Shown here: one piece after another, positions 2,227 to 17,923 of the stretch
How the letters are laid out: the number at the start of each line of letters is the position of its first letter
Position numbering within the stretch: position 1 is the stretch's first letter
Source: a virus
DNA length: 64,000 nucleotides
Virus record (IMG/VR): IMGVR_UViG_3300020045_011333
Coordinates: 32,001-96,000 of that record
Direction: 5' to 3' (one strand)
Program-made: the position numbers and the translations under genes
The notes under the pieces: generated by a model
What the model saw: the letters and a program-made list of their open reading frames with translations, nothing else
The model's database searches: none
Told to the model about the DNA's origin: nothing

Positions 2227-2388
2227 TTAATAATACATAAAATAAAAGCCCTCAGATTTCTCTAAGGGCTTGTAATTTCTTTTATACATCTTTTTAGACT
2301 TGATAACTCGTCTGCGATAAAGTTCGCTGGCTAGGTCTTTAGCCATTGGATTACGCCGTAACGGTTCCTGTTTGATTTTTTTGCTCAT
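2227..2388 (-). CDS. ArfA-like (alternative ribosome-rescue factor) small basic protein, 53 aa, not in the ORF track
   Basis: MSKKIKQEPLRRNPMAKDLASELYRRRVIKSKKMYKRNYKPLEKSEGFYFMYY; the core N-x5-L-x3-L-Y-R-x-R-V-x-K-x-K-K..Y-x-R aligns with the E. coli ArfA core as I recall it; overlaps the terL 3' end. Confidence 0.6.
   Translation of the reverse strand: MSKKIKQEPLRRNPMAKDLASELYRRRVIKSKKMYKRNYKPLEKSEGFYFMYY
2236..2271 (-). terminator. Intrinsic terminator located inside the ArfA-like ORF, before its stop codon
   Basis: AAGCCCTTAG-AGAAAT-CTGAGGGCTT (10-bp stem, one G:U) then TTATTTTAT on the minus strand. Confidence 0.75.
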
Positions 2389-4024
2389 GTTTCAATCTCT
2401 CTTCCTTTTCTTTATTTTTTCTCATCATTTCTTCTTCAATAGCTTTTTCTACAGCATTTCTACGCCATTCACTAGAAGGCGCGGACCCCGCGCCGTGGAG
2501 TTTTTGAGTGCCGCCTTTTCTAACCCTACCTCTAGCCCATTCTAAATATTGGCTTGTGGAATCCACAGCATCATCAAACTGGCCATTAGGAAAAGAAAGT
2601 ATTTCTTTTTCATAGTCTGCTACCCAATTAGCACGTTCTGGAATATGAATCAAGCCTGCTTCAAACATTGGTGCCACAGCGTCCATTCTAAATTCTTTAG
2701 AATTATTATTAGTAGAAATAGCTATAACAGGCGTAGTTGATCTACTTTGCTTTAATTGTATGTAACTTGTACCTGAACCTTTGTCTTCAACTAAAATTGC
2801 TGAAGCTCCCCAACGTTCGGCAGTTAAATCAACTTCTTTAATTAATTCTGGCAACTCTAATTTTTTTCTGACCATATCTAATAGGTAGTGATGCCCTGTA
2901 GCCGTTTCGGCCCAAGTAGTTAAAACACTAAAATCGTTGCGCTCTCCTTTTTTCTGCGCTGAGTCAACAGATAAAGTAATTCTTCTAATTTGAATAGTTT
3001 CATCTTTTCTTGGATCATTACTATATTTTTGAAACCATATTCCTCTAATTAAACCGCCTTCACCATCTAACGGCTCACCTTGATAGATAGCGCTGAATTG
3101 GTGAGTAGTCATAGAATTTCTAAGATTAATATAATGCTCTGCCGGGTAATAATCCCATACAGTTTCGTCAACTCCTTTTCTTCCAATAGGGTCGTTTTCA
3201 GGAATTCCGTCAGATAAAGCTTTTAGATTAAAATATTCATAAGGAATCATTTTTCCTTTTTTAGATTCTTCTAATAAGAATCCGATGAGATCATTTTCCG
3301 AAAATCTCGTATTTACGATCACAATAGGTGCTCTAGGAAGTAAGCGTGAGCTAAAATCTGCAAGGAACCAAGTTTTCGCGGTTTCTCTAACTTTTGGGTC
3401 TTGTGCATCATCCCAAGATGAATACAAATCGTCAATAGCACCTATTGATGCGCGAATTCCAGATATTCCGCTCCCGACGCCACGTGCCAAATACTCAGAT
3501 TTGTTAGTCATGGCCCACCGTGCACCGGCTCTAGCGTCAGCTAATAGAGCGCAATCTGGAAATATATCTTTGTATTCATCAGATGTAACATAAGCTTTAG
3601 TTTTTTTACCTAACTCACCTTCAGCAAATGTGGCATTATAACTAGCTTGAAGCCATTTTACCTTACGCCTTCCCATGGCCCAAACAGCGAATCTTCTTGA
3701 AGAGTATTCGGTTTTACCGGCTCCGGCACAAACGCTTAACGCGAGTCTTGGTATAATTCCTTCTTCTACAAGTTGCAATCTCTCACATATAATATGATGA
3801 TGGTAAGCAGGAGGTTCTTCCATATTTAAATATTCGGCAAAACAAGAATAATTATTAAAAGAGTTTTCTCTTAATTTATTTTTATATTCTGCTTCATAAT
3901 GCTCAATAAAACTTTGAATTCCAGCTAATTGTCCGTATGGATCGCTAGTCTTCGTCAACTCCGTTATAGCTGATATGTACTGGTTCGGAACTGGTTTCGG
4001 GAAGATTGATCGGAACGAGTCCAT
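2351..4024 (-). CDS. terL: Terminase large subunit (likely start at 4024, MDSF...; ORF-track start 4102)
   Basis: Walker A GAGKT, Walker B AIDD, IVNTRFSEND coupling motif, RNase H-like nuclease SVDSA...DFS, EDKGSG, DDAVDS; GGAGG SD before ATG 4024. Confidence 0.95.
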   Translation of the reverse strand: MDSFRSIFPKPVPNQYISAITELTKTSDPYGQLAGIQSFIEHYEAEYKNKLRENSFNNYSCFAEYLNMEEPPAYHHHIICERLQLVEEGIIPRLALSVCAGAGKTEYSSRRFAVWAMGRRKVKWLQASYNATFAEGELGKKTKAYVTSDEYKDIFPDCALLADARAGARWAMTNKSEYLARGVGSGISGIRASIGAIDDLYSSWDDAQDPKVRETAKTWFLADFSSRLLPRAPIVIVNTRFSENDLIGFLLEESKKGKMIPYEYFNLKALSDGIPENDPIGRKGVDETVWDYYPAEHYINLRNSMTTHQFSAIYQGEPLDGEGGLIRGIWFQKYSNDPRKDETIQIRRITLSVDSAQKKGERNDFSVLTTWAETATGHHYLLDMVRKKLELPELIKEVDLTAERWGASAILVEDKGSGTSYIQLKQSRSTTPVIAISTNNNSKEFRMDAVAPMFEAGLIHIPERANWVADYEKEILSFPNGQFDDAVDSTSQYLEWARGRVRKGGTQKLHGAGSAPSSEWRRNAVEKAIEEEMMRKNKEKEERLKHEQKNQTGTVTA

Positions 4025-4514
4025 CAATACTTCCTCCATTATTTTCAGATTTTTGATTGATGATCGAAATGAAAGTCTGGCTTCCCAAGTTAGATTTGTC
4101 ATTAGTAGGTAGCATCCTATTAGTAGTTTTTTCTTCCGGTTCGGGACGGACTTTGTTTATATCTGCCATATCTTTCAAAAGAATGGCTGCGTTTTTTAAA
4201 TCTTTTTCTTCTCTTGCAATGTTTAGAAAAGCAATGTATTCATTATTAATCCATTCCAAAGAAACAGCCGCGTCTTCAACTTTTTTCAAAGGTAAAGGCG
4301 GCGCAGTATCCATAGCACCTTTTTCAGCAGCTTTGATCTTCAACTCTTCAACTCGTGCCGCAACTGTAGGCTCACTCATTAGTTTAGAAGCATTAGCAGC
4401 GGCTGTACTATTCTTACAAGCATAGCCCGCCTCTTTATAAGCAGACATTTGAGTATAACCGGCTGCTATATATGTAGCAAATTTTTCTTGTTTTTCTATA
4501 CTAAGTCTAGCCAT
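3945..4514 (-). CDS. terS: Terminase small subunit
   Basis: N-terminal HTH KQEKFA...AYKEAGY...AAANASKL typical of TerS; directly upstream of and overlapping terL. Confidence 0.75.
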   Translation of the reverse strand: MARLSIEKQEKFATYIAAGYTQMSAYKEAGYACKNSTAAANASKLMSEPTVAARVEELKIKAAEKGAMDTAPPLPLKKVEDAAVSLEWINNEYIAFLNIAREEKDLKNAAILLKDMADINKVRPEPEEKTTNRMLPTNDKSNLGSQTFISIINQKSENNGGSIDGLVPINLPETSSEPVHISYNGVDED

Positions 4515-11598: not shown

Positions 11599-11718
11599 AA
11601 TGTTTATATAAGCCCTTGACTCCAACCTAAATCTTTATTACATTTAAATCGTAGAGAAATCTTGAAGAAGATTATTTAACAAGGGCCTAGGTTGCCCAAA
11701 CAGAAAAGGAGAATTGTA

Positions 11719-11970
11719 ATGGCTCGTAAGGAATTGGCAAACAAGCATGGCATTGTGGATCAGATTAAGACTCTTATCACTAATCAGGATAAGGTCAAGT
11801 ATGCTGTCAAAATGGAATTGGTCCAACTAGGCTATGTCGCAGAGGCTGAACGTGTAAAGACTGTGGCCGTGGTTGAAGCTGGTCGTGGACGTAAGAAGAT
11901 TATTTATGCCCCAACTAATAAAGGCAAAACACTTATTGCTTTTTCCAAAAATTGGAAGACATCATCTTAA
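11719..11970 (+). CDS. Small winged-helix-like protein; paralog of 14733-14963
   Basis: AAGGAG SD; LVQLGYV...GRGRKKIIYAPTNKGK...SKNWK. Confidence 0.55.
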   Translation: MARKELANKHGIVDQIKTLITNQDKVKYAVKMELVQLGYVAEAERVKTVAVVEAGRGRKKIIYAPTNKGKTLIAFSKNWKTSS

Positions 11971-12409: not shown

Positions 12410-12652
12410 ATGATGATGAGGTACAATAAATATGTGGCTACTGCTTTTGTAACTAATCGTGTTGTTACGGCAGAGCCTTCCAGACAATTGGTAAATGCCG
12501 CTGTAAGCATGTTCAAGGATTATCCCCACATAGAGCATTGCTACGTCAGACGATGCCTTGTGGACCAAACCGGAGGCATTCTAAGCGACCCCCATTTCAA
12601 AGCATTGACCATACCAAAGAAATCAGTGCTTGACAAAATGAAAAGAGCATGA
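12410..12652 (+). CDS. Early hypothetical protein (80 aa)
   Basis: AGGAG SD. Confidence 0.6.
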   Translation: MMMRYNKYVATAFVTNRVVTAEPSRQLVNAAVSMFKDYPHIEHCYVRRCLVDQTGGILSDPHFKALTIPKKSVLDKMKRA

Positions 12653-12658
12653 TATAAG
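12630..12658 (+). promoter_or_regulatory. Sigma70-type promoter of the structured ncRNA
   Basis: TTGACA-N17-TATAAG. Confidence 0.55.
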
Positions 12659-12664
12659 CTTTTC

Positions 12665-13025
12665 ATTGATTGAGACGTAGCTCATGCCCCTGTTTGACAC
12701 AGCGACGGCATGAGCCACTGTTCGCGGTGATAGAGGTTCACGGACCGGAAGCTGATGAGGTCAACAGTCAGCATCATTCTAAGGGCATGTGGCTGGAACT
12801 TTCGTTTAAATTGGTACTCTGGCATACGGGTTCGAGTCCCGTTAGAGCAATTCAAAGGTTGTTAACCTTTGTAAGCAAGCCTTGTTGTAGCTGTGTCAGA
12901 GTTTAAATTACTAGATCAGTGATATTAGTTGTGTTTCATTTCCTTTTCACGACAAGTTATCACTGTTAAAAAAGTGCGCCACGTCTCTCAGTCCCTAGGC
13001 TGATTGAGGCAGGCGCACTTTTTTT
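12665..13025 (+). ncRNA. ~360-nt highly structured non-coding RNA with a tRNA T-arm module
   Basis: At least seven stems, including GCTCATGCC/GGCATGAGC, CACTG-TTCG-CGGTG, ACGGG-TTCGAGT-CCCGT, CAAAGGTT/AACCTTTG, CAGTGATA/TATCACTG; own promoter and terminator; no credible ORF. Confidence 0.7.
12968..13025. terminator. Bidirectional terminator closing the ncRNA
   Basis: AAAAAAGTGCGCC ... GGCGCACTTTTTT, 13-bp inverted repeat. Confidence 0.75.
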
Positions 13026-13178
13026 GTTTTTATCTTGAGTTTGCAATTTTTTTATCACGGGAGTCCATTTTTTATTTATCTTCAGAGTCCATTTTTTCTG
13101 GCACGTTGGCGCGAAAATTCTGGAATTTTATTTTAAATTAATTTTAAAAATTTTTCAAAAAATTTCTGGTGAGCGCTG

Positions 13179-13241
13179 GAACAAACCGTGAACATTAGTC
13201 ATGAGAACAAACCGTGAACGACTTTTGTTCCTGATTCGTTC
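13179..13241. promoter_or_regulatory. Three tandem alphaproteobacterial-type LexA boxes
   Basis: GAACAAACCGTGAAC at 13179 and 13205 (identical) and GTTCCTGATTCGTTC at 13227, all GAAC-N7-GAAC/GTTC-N7-GTTC. Confidence 0.65.
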
Positions 13242-13322
13242 CGTTTTAAAAATAAGGCAGGTTCGCCGTTCCCATTCTCGGCCCCGACCTTCGGTCTTTT
13301 GCGGCGTCTTTGAATTGTCCTT

Positions 13323-13351
13323 AGATTATCAAAAGTTTGATTCCATGTCAA
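13323..13351 (-). promoter_or_regulatory. Leftward sigma70 promoter (small-RNA unit A)
   Basis: TTGACA-N17-TAATCT on the minus strand. Confidence 0.65.
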
Positions 13352-13446
13352 CTGGAAAAATAATTTATTTTTATAAAAATTTAGGTTGACTCCGTTTCAT
13401 GACGTTATATATTGAGGATAACGAAAACGCAACGGAGTTAAACCAA

Positions 13447-13833
13447 ATGACTTTCAATTCTTCTATCAAAGAAGCTAAGGAACGCGGCGAATTAAGCCTT
13501 GCCCGTCGCATGGACGCTGAACGTCGAATCGCAAGCGCCATAGTTCGCCACGCGCTCAAAAACAACATGCAAGTTAGTATCAATGATGGCGAGGAATGGA
13601 CAGTTAAAAAGTCTGGAAATTATCGCGAAATTATGTCCGCATTGTATTCCACGGATGAGGATGTTATTCGTTTGAATAACGCAACGGATGGTTTTCCGCT
13701 GGGCAAATTCTTTCTGGTCTATGGTAATGACGGTTATGATGTAGTTTCCGACTATACCGTGACAGAAACAACGGATCATATTTGGGAAACTGTTATTAAG
13801 CCTCTTTCTGATTTGATCGAAATGGGTAAATAA
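13447..13833 (+). CDS. Early hypothetical protein
   Basis: GGAG SD before ATG 13447; NDGEEW...STDED..LVYGND..VVSDYT phage family pattern. Confidence 0.7.
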   Translation: MTFNSSIKEAKERGELSLARRMDAERRIASAIVRHALKNNMQVSINDGEEWTVKKSGNYREIMSALYSTDEDVIRLNNATDGFPLGKFFLVYGNDGYDVVSDYTVTETTDHIWETVIKPLSDLIEMGK

Positions 13834-13911
13834 TTTAAAAAATGGGTATTGACTAAATCCCCATTTCTTTTATGTTACTGGTAACGAAACGCAAACAAAA
13901 GGTTTTGCATC

Positions 13912-14196
13912 ATGACTGTCACGCTAGAAAAATCCTATCGCCGCTCGGTTAACGTCCTGCGGCCTAACAAGGCCCGTATGGCCGCGATTCATGCCGAATA
14001 TAGCCTTATCCATAGCGAGGCTGTTTTCACTGCTAATGCGATGCTATCGCTTGGCAATAAGACCGCAAGAGAACTGTATGAAGCGGCTTGCGCCATTCGA
14101 TCCGATAATGAAACGGAACTGGCAGAAGTGATTCGCGTTGTACTAATGGGATTGGCTCGAAAGGAAGATTATAAGAATAATAAAAATAAGTCTTGA
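13912..14196 (+). CDS. Early hypothetical protein (94 aa)
   Basis: Own promoter TTGACT-N16-TATGTT. Confidence 0.6.
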   Translation: MTVTLEKSYRRSVNVLRPNKARMAAIHAEYSLIHSEAVFTANAMLSLGNKTARELYEAACAIRSDNETELAEVIRVVLMGLARKEDYKNNKNKS

Positions 14197-14253
14197 CTTA
14201 ATCATTAAAATGTAAGAAAACAGGACTGCAAACAACAAATTGGAGCTTTAAAA

Positions 14254-14469
14254 ATGACAATGCTAGTTACTGGTTACAAGAGCAAGAAAGACCTTAAGGC
14301 TGCAATCGGCAAGCCGCTCAAGTATCGTGAAACGTCTATGTTTGGCGCGGAATACAAGCCTAATGGCAAGCTAACCGTCGCTCATCGCCCGCATATGACT
14401 CCAATTGGAGGACGGGAATTTTTCGCTCAAGTGACAATGGTTAACGGATTGATTGCAAAGGTGGAATAA
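14254..14469 (+). CDS. Conserved phage hypothetical protein (71 aa)
   Basis: GGAG SD; Y.SKK.LK..IG.PL.Y.ETS.FG.EY...FA.VTM..G.I.KV family pattern. Confidence 0.7.
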   Translation: MTMLVTGYKSKKDLKAAIGKPLKYRETSMFGAEYKPNGKLTVAHRPHMTPIGGREFFAQVTMVNGLIAKVE

Positions 14470-14484
14470 AATTATTAAATAATT

Positions 14485-14518
14485 AATAAGCCAGTTCTTT
14501 AATTAGAACTGGCTTATT
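14485..14518. terminator. Bidirectional terminator
   Basis: Perfect 14-bp inverted repeat AATAAGCCAGTTCT/AGAACTGGCTTATT. Confidence 0.75.
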
Positions 14519-14590
14519 TTCTTTTATCTAATAAATAAAAAATTTCGATCTCTAATTCTCCCCACCTCCGGCTTTCGCTTTCTTTGATGT
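14485..14590 (-). ncRNA. Candidate ~105-nt leftward small RNA (unit B) carrying GGAGGUG
   Basis: Minus-strand promoter TTGACC-N17-TAGAAT at 14597-14625, no ATG, ends in the 14485-14518 terminator. Confidence 0.5.
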
Positions 14591-14732
14591 AGCACCATTC
14601 TATAACATTCTTAAACTCTGGTCAACAACAAAATTCACCAAAATAATTTTATTTTATTACATTTTCCTCTTGTCAAACATTTTTAAATCATTAGATTGCA
14701 GTGAGAAACAAACAAACAAAGGAGTTTTCTAA

Positions 14733-14963
14733 ATGTCTCGCAAGCCAATCTTTTCCACAAACAAAGAAATTGCAACCGTTCTAAAAGCATTTGCCGCTGG
14801 CCAAACAGTGAGCTATGACCATAGACGACGACTCGTTGCAACTGGTCATATAGTTGCAACAAAATCTGAAACCCGAGAAATGCGCCGTGGACCGCGTACC
14901 ATTGTTTATGCATTGTCTGGTAAGGGCAAGGGATTGCTGAATCTTTCTAAAAATTGGAAATAA
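14733..14963 (+). CDS. Small winged-helix-like protein; paralog of 11719-11970
   Basis: AAGGAG SD; LVATGHI...RGPRTIVYALSGKGK...SKNWK. Confidence 0.6.
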   Translation: MSRKPIFSTNKEIATVLKAFAAGQTVSYDHRRRLVATGHIVATKSETREMRRGPRTIVYALSGKGKGLLNLSKNWK

Positions 14964-15004: not shown

Positions 15005-15592
15005 ATGCCTGCTATCATTGAAACAACGGTTTATCAATTCAACGAATTGAGCGAACGCGCAAAAGACAATGCCCGTCAATGGTTCCGCGATGTTAGTGCA
15101 AATGATGACTGGTACGATTCAACCTTTGAAGATGTTAAGGAATGCGGCAAGCTAATTGGCATTACCATTGATAAAATCTATTTCAGAGGTTTTTGGTCGC
15201 AAGGTGACGGCGCTTGTTTTGAAGGCTCATATTCTTATGCTAAGGCCGCTCCCGCCACCATAGCGGCTTATACAGGCGGAAACGAAACGCTTGTGAGGAT
15301 TGCTAAGGAATTACTAGAAGTACAACGCAAGGCGTTCTATAGACTGACTGCAACTGTTAAGCATTCTGGCCGGTACTATCATGAATATTGCACTGATATT
15401 GACGTTTACAATAATGGTGAAATTGCTGATAACGTAACAGATGAAATTATTTCTACTCTGTTACGTGATTTTATGCGCTGGATTTACAGAGAATTAGAAA
15501 AGGCTTATAATGATTACATGAGCAACGAAACGGTTGACGATAATATTCGTTGTAATGAATATACGTTCGACATTAATGGAAAGAGGTTTTAA
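15005..15592 (+). CDS. Conserved protein of the plasmid/ICE family commonly annotated as antitoxin of a stability system (function unproven)
   Basis: IETTVY...ELSE.AK..AR.W, YFRGFWSQGDGACFEG.Y, HSGRYYHEY, LRDFMRWIYRELEK.Y motifs. Confidence 0.6.
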   Translation: MPAIIETTVYQFNELSERAKDNARQWFRDVSANDDWYDSTFEDVKECGKLIGITIDKIYFRGFWSQGDGACFEGSYSYAKAAPATIAAYTGGNETLVRIAKELLEVQRKAFYRLTATVKHSGRYYHEYCTDIDVYNNGEIADNVTDEIISTLLRDFMRWIYRELEKAYNDYMSNETVDDNIRCNEYTFDINGKRF

Positions 15593-17756: not shown

Positions 17757-17813
17757 ATAGGGCTGCAAGGCCCTATTTTCTTTTTAACGCCTGCCGTGGG
17801 AACGGCAGGCCTG
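17757..17813 (+). terminator. Two adjacent hairpins (terminator-like)
   Basis: AATAGGG...CCCTATT and GCCTGCCGT-GGGA-ACGGCAGGC. Confidence 0.5.
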
Positions 17814-17923
17814 CCTGTTATTTATTTCAGAACAAAACATAAACATAATATTTTAAAAATTCTGGTTGACATATGTTTTGCAGGTCATTAGATTACAGAT
17901 ATCGAAACAAAGGAATCAAGCTA

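Follow-up and report, generated by a model that had tools for sequence, protein, structure and literature searches.

Two leftward transcription units, here called A and B, lie in the rightward early gene block of an uncultured phage, and comparison with related phages indicates that they are paralogous. We give roughly even chances to the reading in which they are functional genes for short non-coding RNAs ("sibling" sRNAs), forming the leftward arm of two-way early cassettes. A functional leftward transcript is favored because the promoter, the transcribed block, the hairpin, and the terminator are all conserved and the units are placed back-to-back with rightward promoters. Taken as far as sequence can go, the units would constitute a new candidate family of phage sRNAs with a narrow distribution. 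An earlier note on this DNA, made from its letters, had proposed a small paralogous family of leftward promoter-plus-short-transcript units; the comparisons described below support that proposal, and the reading frames of the units are in keeping with a non-coding character.

The window, by which we mean the whole stretch of 64,000 nucleotides that was analyzed, comprises bases 32001-96000 of an IMG/VR record (IMGVR_UViG_3300020045_011333) of 184,940 bp with 36.5% G+C. Terminase genes occupy the minus strand at 2351-4514 of the window, and a long block of small rightward genes, most of which have their own sigma-70-type promoter, starts at ~9.3 kb. Units A and B occupy two gene-free gaps of this block, at ~12670-13446 and 14470-14732. 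A rightward early promoter stands back-to-back with every unit, in the window, in its relatives, and in a more distant contig, L229. The predicted transcripts overlap no coding sequence: B would end at 14485, the convergent gene stops at 14469, 16 nt beyond, and A faces non-coding DNA only. The main features are the following.

13351-13323, minus strand: promoter of unit A (TTGACA, 17 nt, TAATCT), read from the sequence.
13256-13316, minus strand: conserved transcribed block of unit A, from alignments of A units.
13227-13255, minus strand: 3' module of unit A, from alignments, with a T-run (13255-13248), AAAAC, and a GAAC-N7-GAAC box (13241-13227).
13179-13219, minus strand: two identical 15-mer GTTC-N7-GTTC boxes downstream of unit A, from sequence comparison.
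13386-13413, plus strand: rightward early promoter back-to-back with unit A, predicted to drive the gene starting at 13447.
14625-14597, minus strand: promoter of unit B (TTGACC, 17 nt, TAGAAT), scoring 10/12 in a consensus scan.
14537-14590, minus strand: conserved transcribed block of unit B, from alignments of B units.
14485-14518, minus strand: two-way intrinsic terminator with a 14-bp stem, predicted to end the unit B RNA as well as the rightward operon that ends at 14469.
14670-14697, plus strand: rightward early promoter back-to-back with unit B, predicted to drive the 76-aa gene at 14733.
17797-17839, plus strand: module C, a promoter-less copy of the 3' module (core, T-run, and degenerate GAAC box), found by nhmmer (E = 0.0013).

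Inside the window alone, the likeness of A and B is only suggestive (p ~0.01-0.02). Local alignment of the 61 nt that follow the two -10 boxes gave a score of 20, which was reached by 80 of 5,000 shuffles and by 5 of 492 comparisons with segments that follow other promoter-like sites of the genome; when the units were searched by blastn against all 185 kb of it, no further copies came up and A was not matched with B. BLAST searches against plasmids and phages found no close relatives. Relatives were identified through the 195-aa neighbor (15005-15592), which led to four IMG/VR records representing three phages, L054, L055, and L103 (L053 is the same as L103), with protein identities of 57-67%. 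At the DNA level, unit A is 76-80% identical between the window and these relatives, the adjacent 71-aa gene is 70-75% identical, and unit B aligns in part; against L054, unit A reaches ~80% identity over 177 nt and the 71-aa gene 75%, the other flanks being unalignable. Both units are syntenic in the three phages, except for unit B in L055, where a leftward HNH endonuclease gene sits at its place; L055 is also without the T-run of unit A. The units of this clade consist, in order, of an A+T-rich upstream stretch, TTGACT, an unrelated 17-nt spacer, TAnnnT, 9 nt, TCAAAGA (TCAAGGA once), a variable G+C-rich stretch, a G-rich core, a T-run, and then AAAACGGAAC.

Reciprocal profile searches of a 1.2-Mb database joined the two sets of units. 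A profile built from the four A units alone aligned end to end with the B units of L103 and L054 (E = 5e-7 and 2e-4, respectively), and a profile built from the three B units alone matched the A units at E values of 3e-4 to 6e-3. Because the profiles match in both directions, we take A and B to be true paralogues that are older than the split of these phages; unit B of the window is the most decayed copy. The homology of the two purine-rich leaders that the earlier note had described, at coordinates that proved correct, is thus marginal in the window and significant through the profiles, and the units are kept at the homologous loci of the three relatives.

The earlier note had described two near-consensus minus-strand promoters, and both lie where it placed them. 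The description suits promoter B, which is the second-best site of the 6-kb region in the consensus scan, but it flatters promoter A, in which the -10 element has only 3/6 consensus matches (T1, A2, and T6) and which was therefore not listed by the scan. The word TCAAAGA occupies 13313-13307 in A and 14587-14581 in B, with exactly 9 nt between it and the -10 element in both units, as had been noted, and the predicted start sites lie near 13316 for A and at 14590-14588 for B. The orthologues of promoter A in L054, L055, and L103 have TTGACT, a 17-nt spacer of other sequence, and TATTCT or TAATCT; those of promoter B have TTGACT, 17 nt, and TAAATT. Common to all 11 units of five genomes are a -35 element TTGACn, a spacer of 17-18 nt, a -10 element TAnnnT, exactly 9 nt, the word (T/G)TCARRGA, and a G-rich block of 55-70 nt, while the spacers are unrelated in sequence and held in length. 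Judged by hexamers and both spacings that are fixed in 11 units amid varying spacers, the leftward promoter is selected as a promoter. In units A and B, as in the four copies of L229, the conserved sequence sets in no more than ~3 nt from the predicted start. A second conserved leftward promoter is present at 13158-13130, downstream of unit A. Two further ideas about these promoters were dropped: CcrM methylation, with GANTC in 6/7 clade spacers and 4/4 L229 spacers, because GANTC is neither depleted in the genomes nor clustered at the units, and a single-strand (Frpo-type) promoter, the units being without a long inverted repeat.

Within the transcribed part, the 26-nt core of unit A (13281-13256) is identical in the three relatives and differs at two bases in the window. 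The G-rich core of unit B (14569-14544) includes GGAGGTG at 14569-14563 and is followed by a T-run at 14542-14537; the three B units share an unchanged stretch of 15 nt, and across all copies the invariant stretches measure 15 nt for B and 24 nt for A. Unit A has a hairpin at 13296-13286, with 4 bp and a GAA or GGA loop, that is paired in all four A units and shows compensatory changes in two of its four pairs, with slid controls falling to 25-38% paired. The covariation value was matched by 36 of 500 shuffles, and with no more than about three independent lineages such statistics are weak. Analogous GC-GAA(A)-GC hairpins are found in the B units. Apart from the 4-bp hairpin and the terminator of B, neither RNAalifold nor RNAfold produced a consistent fold, and fold energies compared with shuffles indicated no excess stability (z of -1.5 to +1.0), the value of -3.96 for B of the window coming from its terminator.

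The earlier suggestion that unit B ends after about 105 nt in a terminator is borne out by the sequence: from the promoter, the run is ~105-106 nt to the two-way hairpin, the 14-bp stem of which is perfect and covaries among three genomes. Unit B would accordingly specify an RNA of about 105 nt. Terminator scans called none at the 3' module of unit A, where there is only a weak hairpin with a T-run, and because of this the A RNA may read on. The A transcript is predicted to be either ~65-70 nt, if it ends at the weak hairpin and T-run, or ~350 nt, if it passes through the GAAC boxes to a two-way hairpin at 13024-12968, which lies beyond these boxes, the promoter at 13158-13130, and a repeat region.

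If the units are sRNA genes, host sigma-70 RNA polymerase would transcribe them leftward from the two-way early promoter cassettes, and the weakly structured G/A-rich tract would be the working part, binding a partner early in infection; this partner could be an RNA-binding protein, the 30S subunit, or a C/U-rich RNA. We regard this guessed mechanism as doubtful. The decoy roles proposed earlier, directed at the 30S anti-Shine-Dalgarno (SD) sequence, at CU-rich sRNAs, or at Hfq/Csr, are neither supported nor refuted by the analysis. SD-like and GGA words are indeed present (GGAGGUG in B, GAGAAUGGGA in unit A of the window, and GAGGAUGGGA in the A orthologues), but they are to be expected in any G/A-rich tract; a perfect SD is confined to the B units. 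Each unit has 2-5 GGA words in this tract, most of which are left unpaired, and not in loops, in minimum free energy folds that are like those of shuffles.

Searches for families and targets were consistently negative, which, like the fold energies and the missing canonical terminator of A, weighs against a classical sRNA that acts through its structure or through base pairing. With Rfam 15, nothing but tRNAs reached the gathering score in the window, the best match in 12500-14800 being GibS at 23 bits against a cutoff of 115, and L054, L055, L103, and L229 gave no match at E ≤ 0.1; CsrB/Rsm models were included and did not match. In RNAduplex, the units paired with the neighboring 360-nt ncRNA no better than shuffled controls did, and an ungapped complementarity scan of four phage genomes found no conserved site, only self-antisense matches and the inverted module C. 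A scan for targets by k-mers gave mostly noise from A+T-rich sequence. G-quadruplex potential, judged by eye, was inconsistent across the units. The idea that the core common to A and C is an RNA anti-CRISPR, a solitary mimic of a CRISPR repeat, was set aside: its pattern gave 45 single matches in 185,579 genomes, about the chance level, none of them repeated within a contig and none extending past the pattern.

The family extends beyond the clade to one contig. Within 4 kb, L229 (52% G+C) has four units that are built in the same way, with TTGACn, 17-18 nt, TAATCT or TAGAGT, 9 nt, GTCAGGA, and a G-rich block. This block, of ~62 nt, is nearly identical across the four copies, and the spacers and downstream DNA diverge. 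The word ATCGAAAC, which opens rightward early transcripts in the window phage, is present in L229 too, and because of this common word we take L229 to be a distant member of the same phage group. The 185-kb genome holds two full units and one partial copy, module C, located after the two terminators of a rightward operon and before an early promoter at 17866; clearer copies of module C are found at 6983-7036 of L054 and 7520-7572 of L055. Profile searches of the phage's own genome and of the full records of its relatives revealed no further full copies. Across ~370 loci (130 around homologues of the 128-aa and 195-aa neighbors, 80 metagenomic, 118 with GAAC boxes, and 45 bacterial), nhmmer matched only the four records of the relatives and L229, and no new lineages were added when IMG/VR was scanned for exact patterns of the A and B cores and of the L229 block; a pattern match in L132 lies inside a gene and is due to chance. 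The family is therefore narrow, with five genomes. The two-way cassettes, the T-run with its GAAC module, module C, and the weak terminator of A are observations that go beyond the earlier note.

An alternative is that leftward transcription itself matters rather than the RNA. The units would then be cis-acting control modules, each with a strong promoter that points away from its rightward partner and fires into a T-run and protein-bound GAAC boxes; the putative binder, a phage protein or an alphaproteobacterial-type LexA of the host, would serve as a barrier or roadblock, and the effect could be insulation of the early cassettes, supply of negative supercoils to the rightward promoter, or a switch between short and long RNA set by box occupancy. 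We judge this unlikely, although several features of the units fit it. GAAC-N7-GAAC is an alphaproteobacterial LexA-type motif (PMC9578287, PMC4211646). The clade units end in a T-run and one such box, and the two GTTC boxes downstream of unit A are the remnant of a phased array of ~12 half-sites in the relatives, the window having an ~80-nt deletion. Boxes or arrays also follow the block in two or three of the four L229 copies, one of which has a T-run as well. The rightward promoter at the back of every unit, the recurrence of core, T-run, and box without a promoter just upstream of another early promoter (module C), and the wide spread of phased GAAC arrays in phage contigs (101 clusters in 118 loci) fit cis-acting modules in the same way. 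Because module C stands alone without a promoter, a role at the DNA level, as a protein site or a roadblock, is conceivable; module C fits such a role at least as well as it fits the sRNA reading, against which the missing canonical terminator of A and the loss from L055 of unit B and of the T-run of A must also be counted.

The conservation of the transcribed block speaks against cis-acting modules, since a by-product RNA needs no invariant blocks of 15-26 nt that begin at the transcription start. Moreover, the box is decayed and effectively lost in unit B of the window, one L229 copy is boxless, and the motif is that of alphaproteobacteria, a group to which the host may not belong. Unit A does read into an array like those of other uncultured phages; however, such arrays are far more widespread than the units, and L229 is the only other lineage, and the only one of the 101 clusters, in which a unit-type promoter reads into an array. 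Annotation of ten neighboring proteins with Pfam and PHROG returned only families without an assigned function, so the neighborhood offers no candidate box-binding protein.

It is also imaginable, at a low probability, that each unit senses whether a host or phage protein is bound to the DNA and adjusts early RNA output accordingly, as a roadblock-gated RNA switch. With the boxes occupied, a short G-rich RNA would be released at the T-run and would soak up the 30S subunit or a CsrA-like reader of GGA or SD words; with the boxes empty, for example, after SOS induction, a long antisense RNA would run across the structured ncRNA and early genes.

A further alternative, to which we attach comparably little weight, holds that the units are recombination and regulatory boundaries, kept for the shuffling of early genes and giving a functionless transcript. 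It takes as its model the PeSLs (promoter-early stem-loops), which have been described as mobile regulatory cassettes of T4-type phages (PMC2839356). The units share with PeSLs a conserved intergenic sigma-70-type promoter and stem-loop amid small shuffled early genes, and non-coding blocks that are better conserved than the neighboring genes. Gene content beside the units varies among the relatives while the units stay: in G002 and G001 the homologue of the 128-aa gene lies at a distance of 9-24 kb, none of the three relatives has a homologue of the 94-aa gene, the sole match of the 76-aa gene there is to the copy of its 92-aa paralogue rather than to a counterpart of its own, and the HNH endonuclease gene of L055 stands in the place of B. 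In addition, A and C are inverted copies that bound ~4.5 kb. Recombination, however, depends on long and identical substrates and would not call for a conserved promoter geometry with variable spacers, and A and B are too diverged to recombine, because blastn misses them. PeSL promoters point in the direction of the genes, and PeSLs number in the dozens, whereas the units lie on the opposite strand with only two or three copies per genome, and in the units a transcribed block of 55-70 nt is conserved in addition to the promoter and hairpin.

That the units are leaders for micro-ORFs, of 9-13 codons starting MGTANLP in A and 19-28 codons starting MRDGIF in B, is highly improbable. After either promoter there is no ORF of at least 30 aa except 13199-13351, which starts on the TTG of the -35 element, in line with the earlier statement that no credible ORF follows. 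The same note had drawn attention to a perfect SD without a start codon in B; this holds for the window, where GGAGGTG is followed by ATT, but not for L054 and L103, in which an ATG follows 7 nt later, at ideal spacing, and opens ORFs of 19-28 codons. An ATG also lies within the invariant core of every A unit. Nevertheless, T-runs of different length throw the B reading frames apart after 6-7 codons, the homologous DNA of A and B would give unrelated peptides, and the L229 units have no start codon at that position; for these reasons, and because of the ATT in the window, coding by the units is unlikely. Synonymous changes are almost absent from the A core, a pattern that indicates constraint at the nucleotide level.

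Transcription-primed origins of replication are known from ColE1 (RNA II), T7, and T4 (oriF/oriG), and it is scarcely credible that the units are of this kind, with the G-rich RNA forming an R-loop at the T/A-rich tract and the GAAC repeats serving as iterons: they do have a strong promoter, a G-rich non-template strand (B and L229) followed by a T/A-run, and, adjoining unit A, a phased repeat array and a 45-bp stretch of almost pure A+T, but cumulative GC skew tracks gene orientation with no turning point near 13-15 kb, the A units are not G-skewed, four units in 4 kb of L229 would be odd for origins, and no replication genes lie nearby.

To our knowledge, the small RNAs made by virulent phages have been little explored, and hardly any of them has an assigned function. 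The units would add a candidate sRNA family with an unusually clear promoter-plus-transcript signature, sibling copies within a genome, and a constant position in two-way cassettes, with a link to the widespread GAAC arrays. As defined, clonable fragments of ~250 bp each, they open the question of whether early leftward RNAs, or leftward transcription into boxed arrays, tune the first minutes of infection. Virulent phages commonly have antisense and short RNAs that begin at start sites of their own, and antisense and intergenic small RNAs of Pseudomonas phages have been catalogued by ONT-cappable-seq (PMC10914365). The unit transcripts would resemble such RNAs in being short, made from a host-type promoter, and directed against an early operon, with B ending at an intrinsic terminator. 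The OOP RNA of lambda is the classic phage antisense RNA, and SOS-type boxes occur at lambda pO, as they do near unit A. A sigma-70 promoter of its own together with an intrinsic terminator is found for B, whereas A has only the weak hairpin and T-run. Unlike OOP, the units overlap no 3' end of a convergent gene, and their boxes lie downstream of the start rather than over the promoter. They further differ from OOP and other phage sRNAs in being paralogues with a shared 5' word and G-rich core, and they show no kinship to them in sequence or in Rfam.

CsrB, RsmY, and RsmZ are sRNAs that act as protein sponges, with many GGA words in hairpin loops. The units differ from them in having far fewer motifs than CsrB, in GGA words that are not predicted to lie in loops, and in matching none of the corresponding Rfam models. 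They share with these RNAs a predicted non-coding, purine-rich character, 2-5 GGA words, and the presence of sibling copies, and some of their GGA words resemble the CsrA consensus (AGGAUG in the A orthologues).

Two genes lying next to unit A, one of the paralogous leftward promoter and short-transcript units A and B, do not keep their place among three related IMG/VR phages (L054, L055 and L103). The 128-aa and 94-aa genes that follow unit A (window 13447-14196) are not at that position in any of these relatives. Two of them have a homologue of the 128-aa gene 9-24 kb from it; none was found in the third, and the 94-aa gene is absent from the relatives. This displacement and absence show that gene cassettes have been shuffled around conserved noncoding blocks. 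Other features of the units and their surroundings are as follows.

Window 11692-11970: 92-aa small basic protein ending ...SKNWK
Window 14733-14963: 76-aa small basic protein ending ...SKNWK
Window 13158-13130, minus strand: second leftward promoter (TTGAAA, 17 nt, TAAAAT), conserved in the relatives
Window 13225-13281, minus strand: 3' module of unit A (core, T-run and GAAC-N7-GAAC box)
Window 17797-17839, plus strand: module C, a promoter-less copy of that module
L055 3295-3852, minus strand (leftward): HNH_3 endonuclease gene (Pfam E value, 1e-13)
L229 5700-9792, leftward: four near-identical units on a distant contig

After the second promoter, located downstream of unit A, come two or three repeats of the GGACTC-N3-GTGATAAA type and then a two-way hairpin (13024-12968), and this whole arrangement (13024-13158, minus strand) is kept in the relatives. 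The GAAC array of the three relatives comprises ~12 half-sites and one inverted box, adjoining a 45-bp A+T stretch; the window's array has an ~80-nt deletion (window 13220-13230 versus L054 2620-2740) of a stretch that all three retain. At least 119 contigs in IMG/VR contain the exact 15-mer GTTCACGGTTTGTTC (window 13179-13241). The matches listed (L217-L334) include 101 clusters with two or more GAAC-N7-GAAC boxes, which are frequently spaced in strict 11-bp phase. Of the listed loci, 25 also carry a homologue of the window phage's large terminase, so the arrays are often found within ~10 kb of packaging genes.

The two small basic proteins are paralogues, one on each side of the region, and only the 92-aa protein is present in the relatives. 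Neither has a Pfam match; both are candidates for binding the repeat DNA nearby. In L055, the unit B position is occupied by the HNH_3 gene, which has its own TTGACT promoter and is likely a homing-endonuclease insertion that replaced unit B.

On L229 (9.8 kb, 52% G+C), every one of the four units lies upstream of an early gene that runs rightward. One of these genes encodes a DUF932 protein, and the window phage's start word, ATCGAAAC, also occurs at the rightward promoters.

Recombination, inversion or simply a shared function may account for the inverted copies formed by unit A's 3' module and module C. The two bound ~4.5 kb, and in L054 and L055 their identity is 85-89% over 53 nt.
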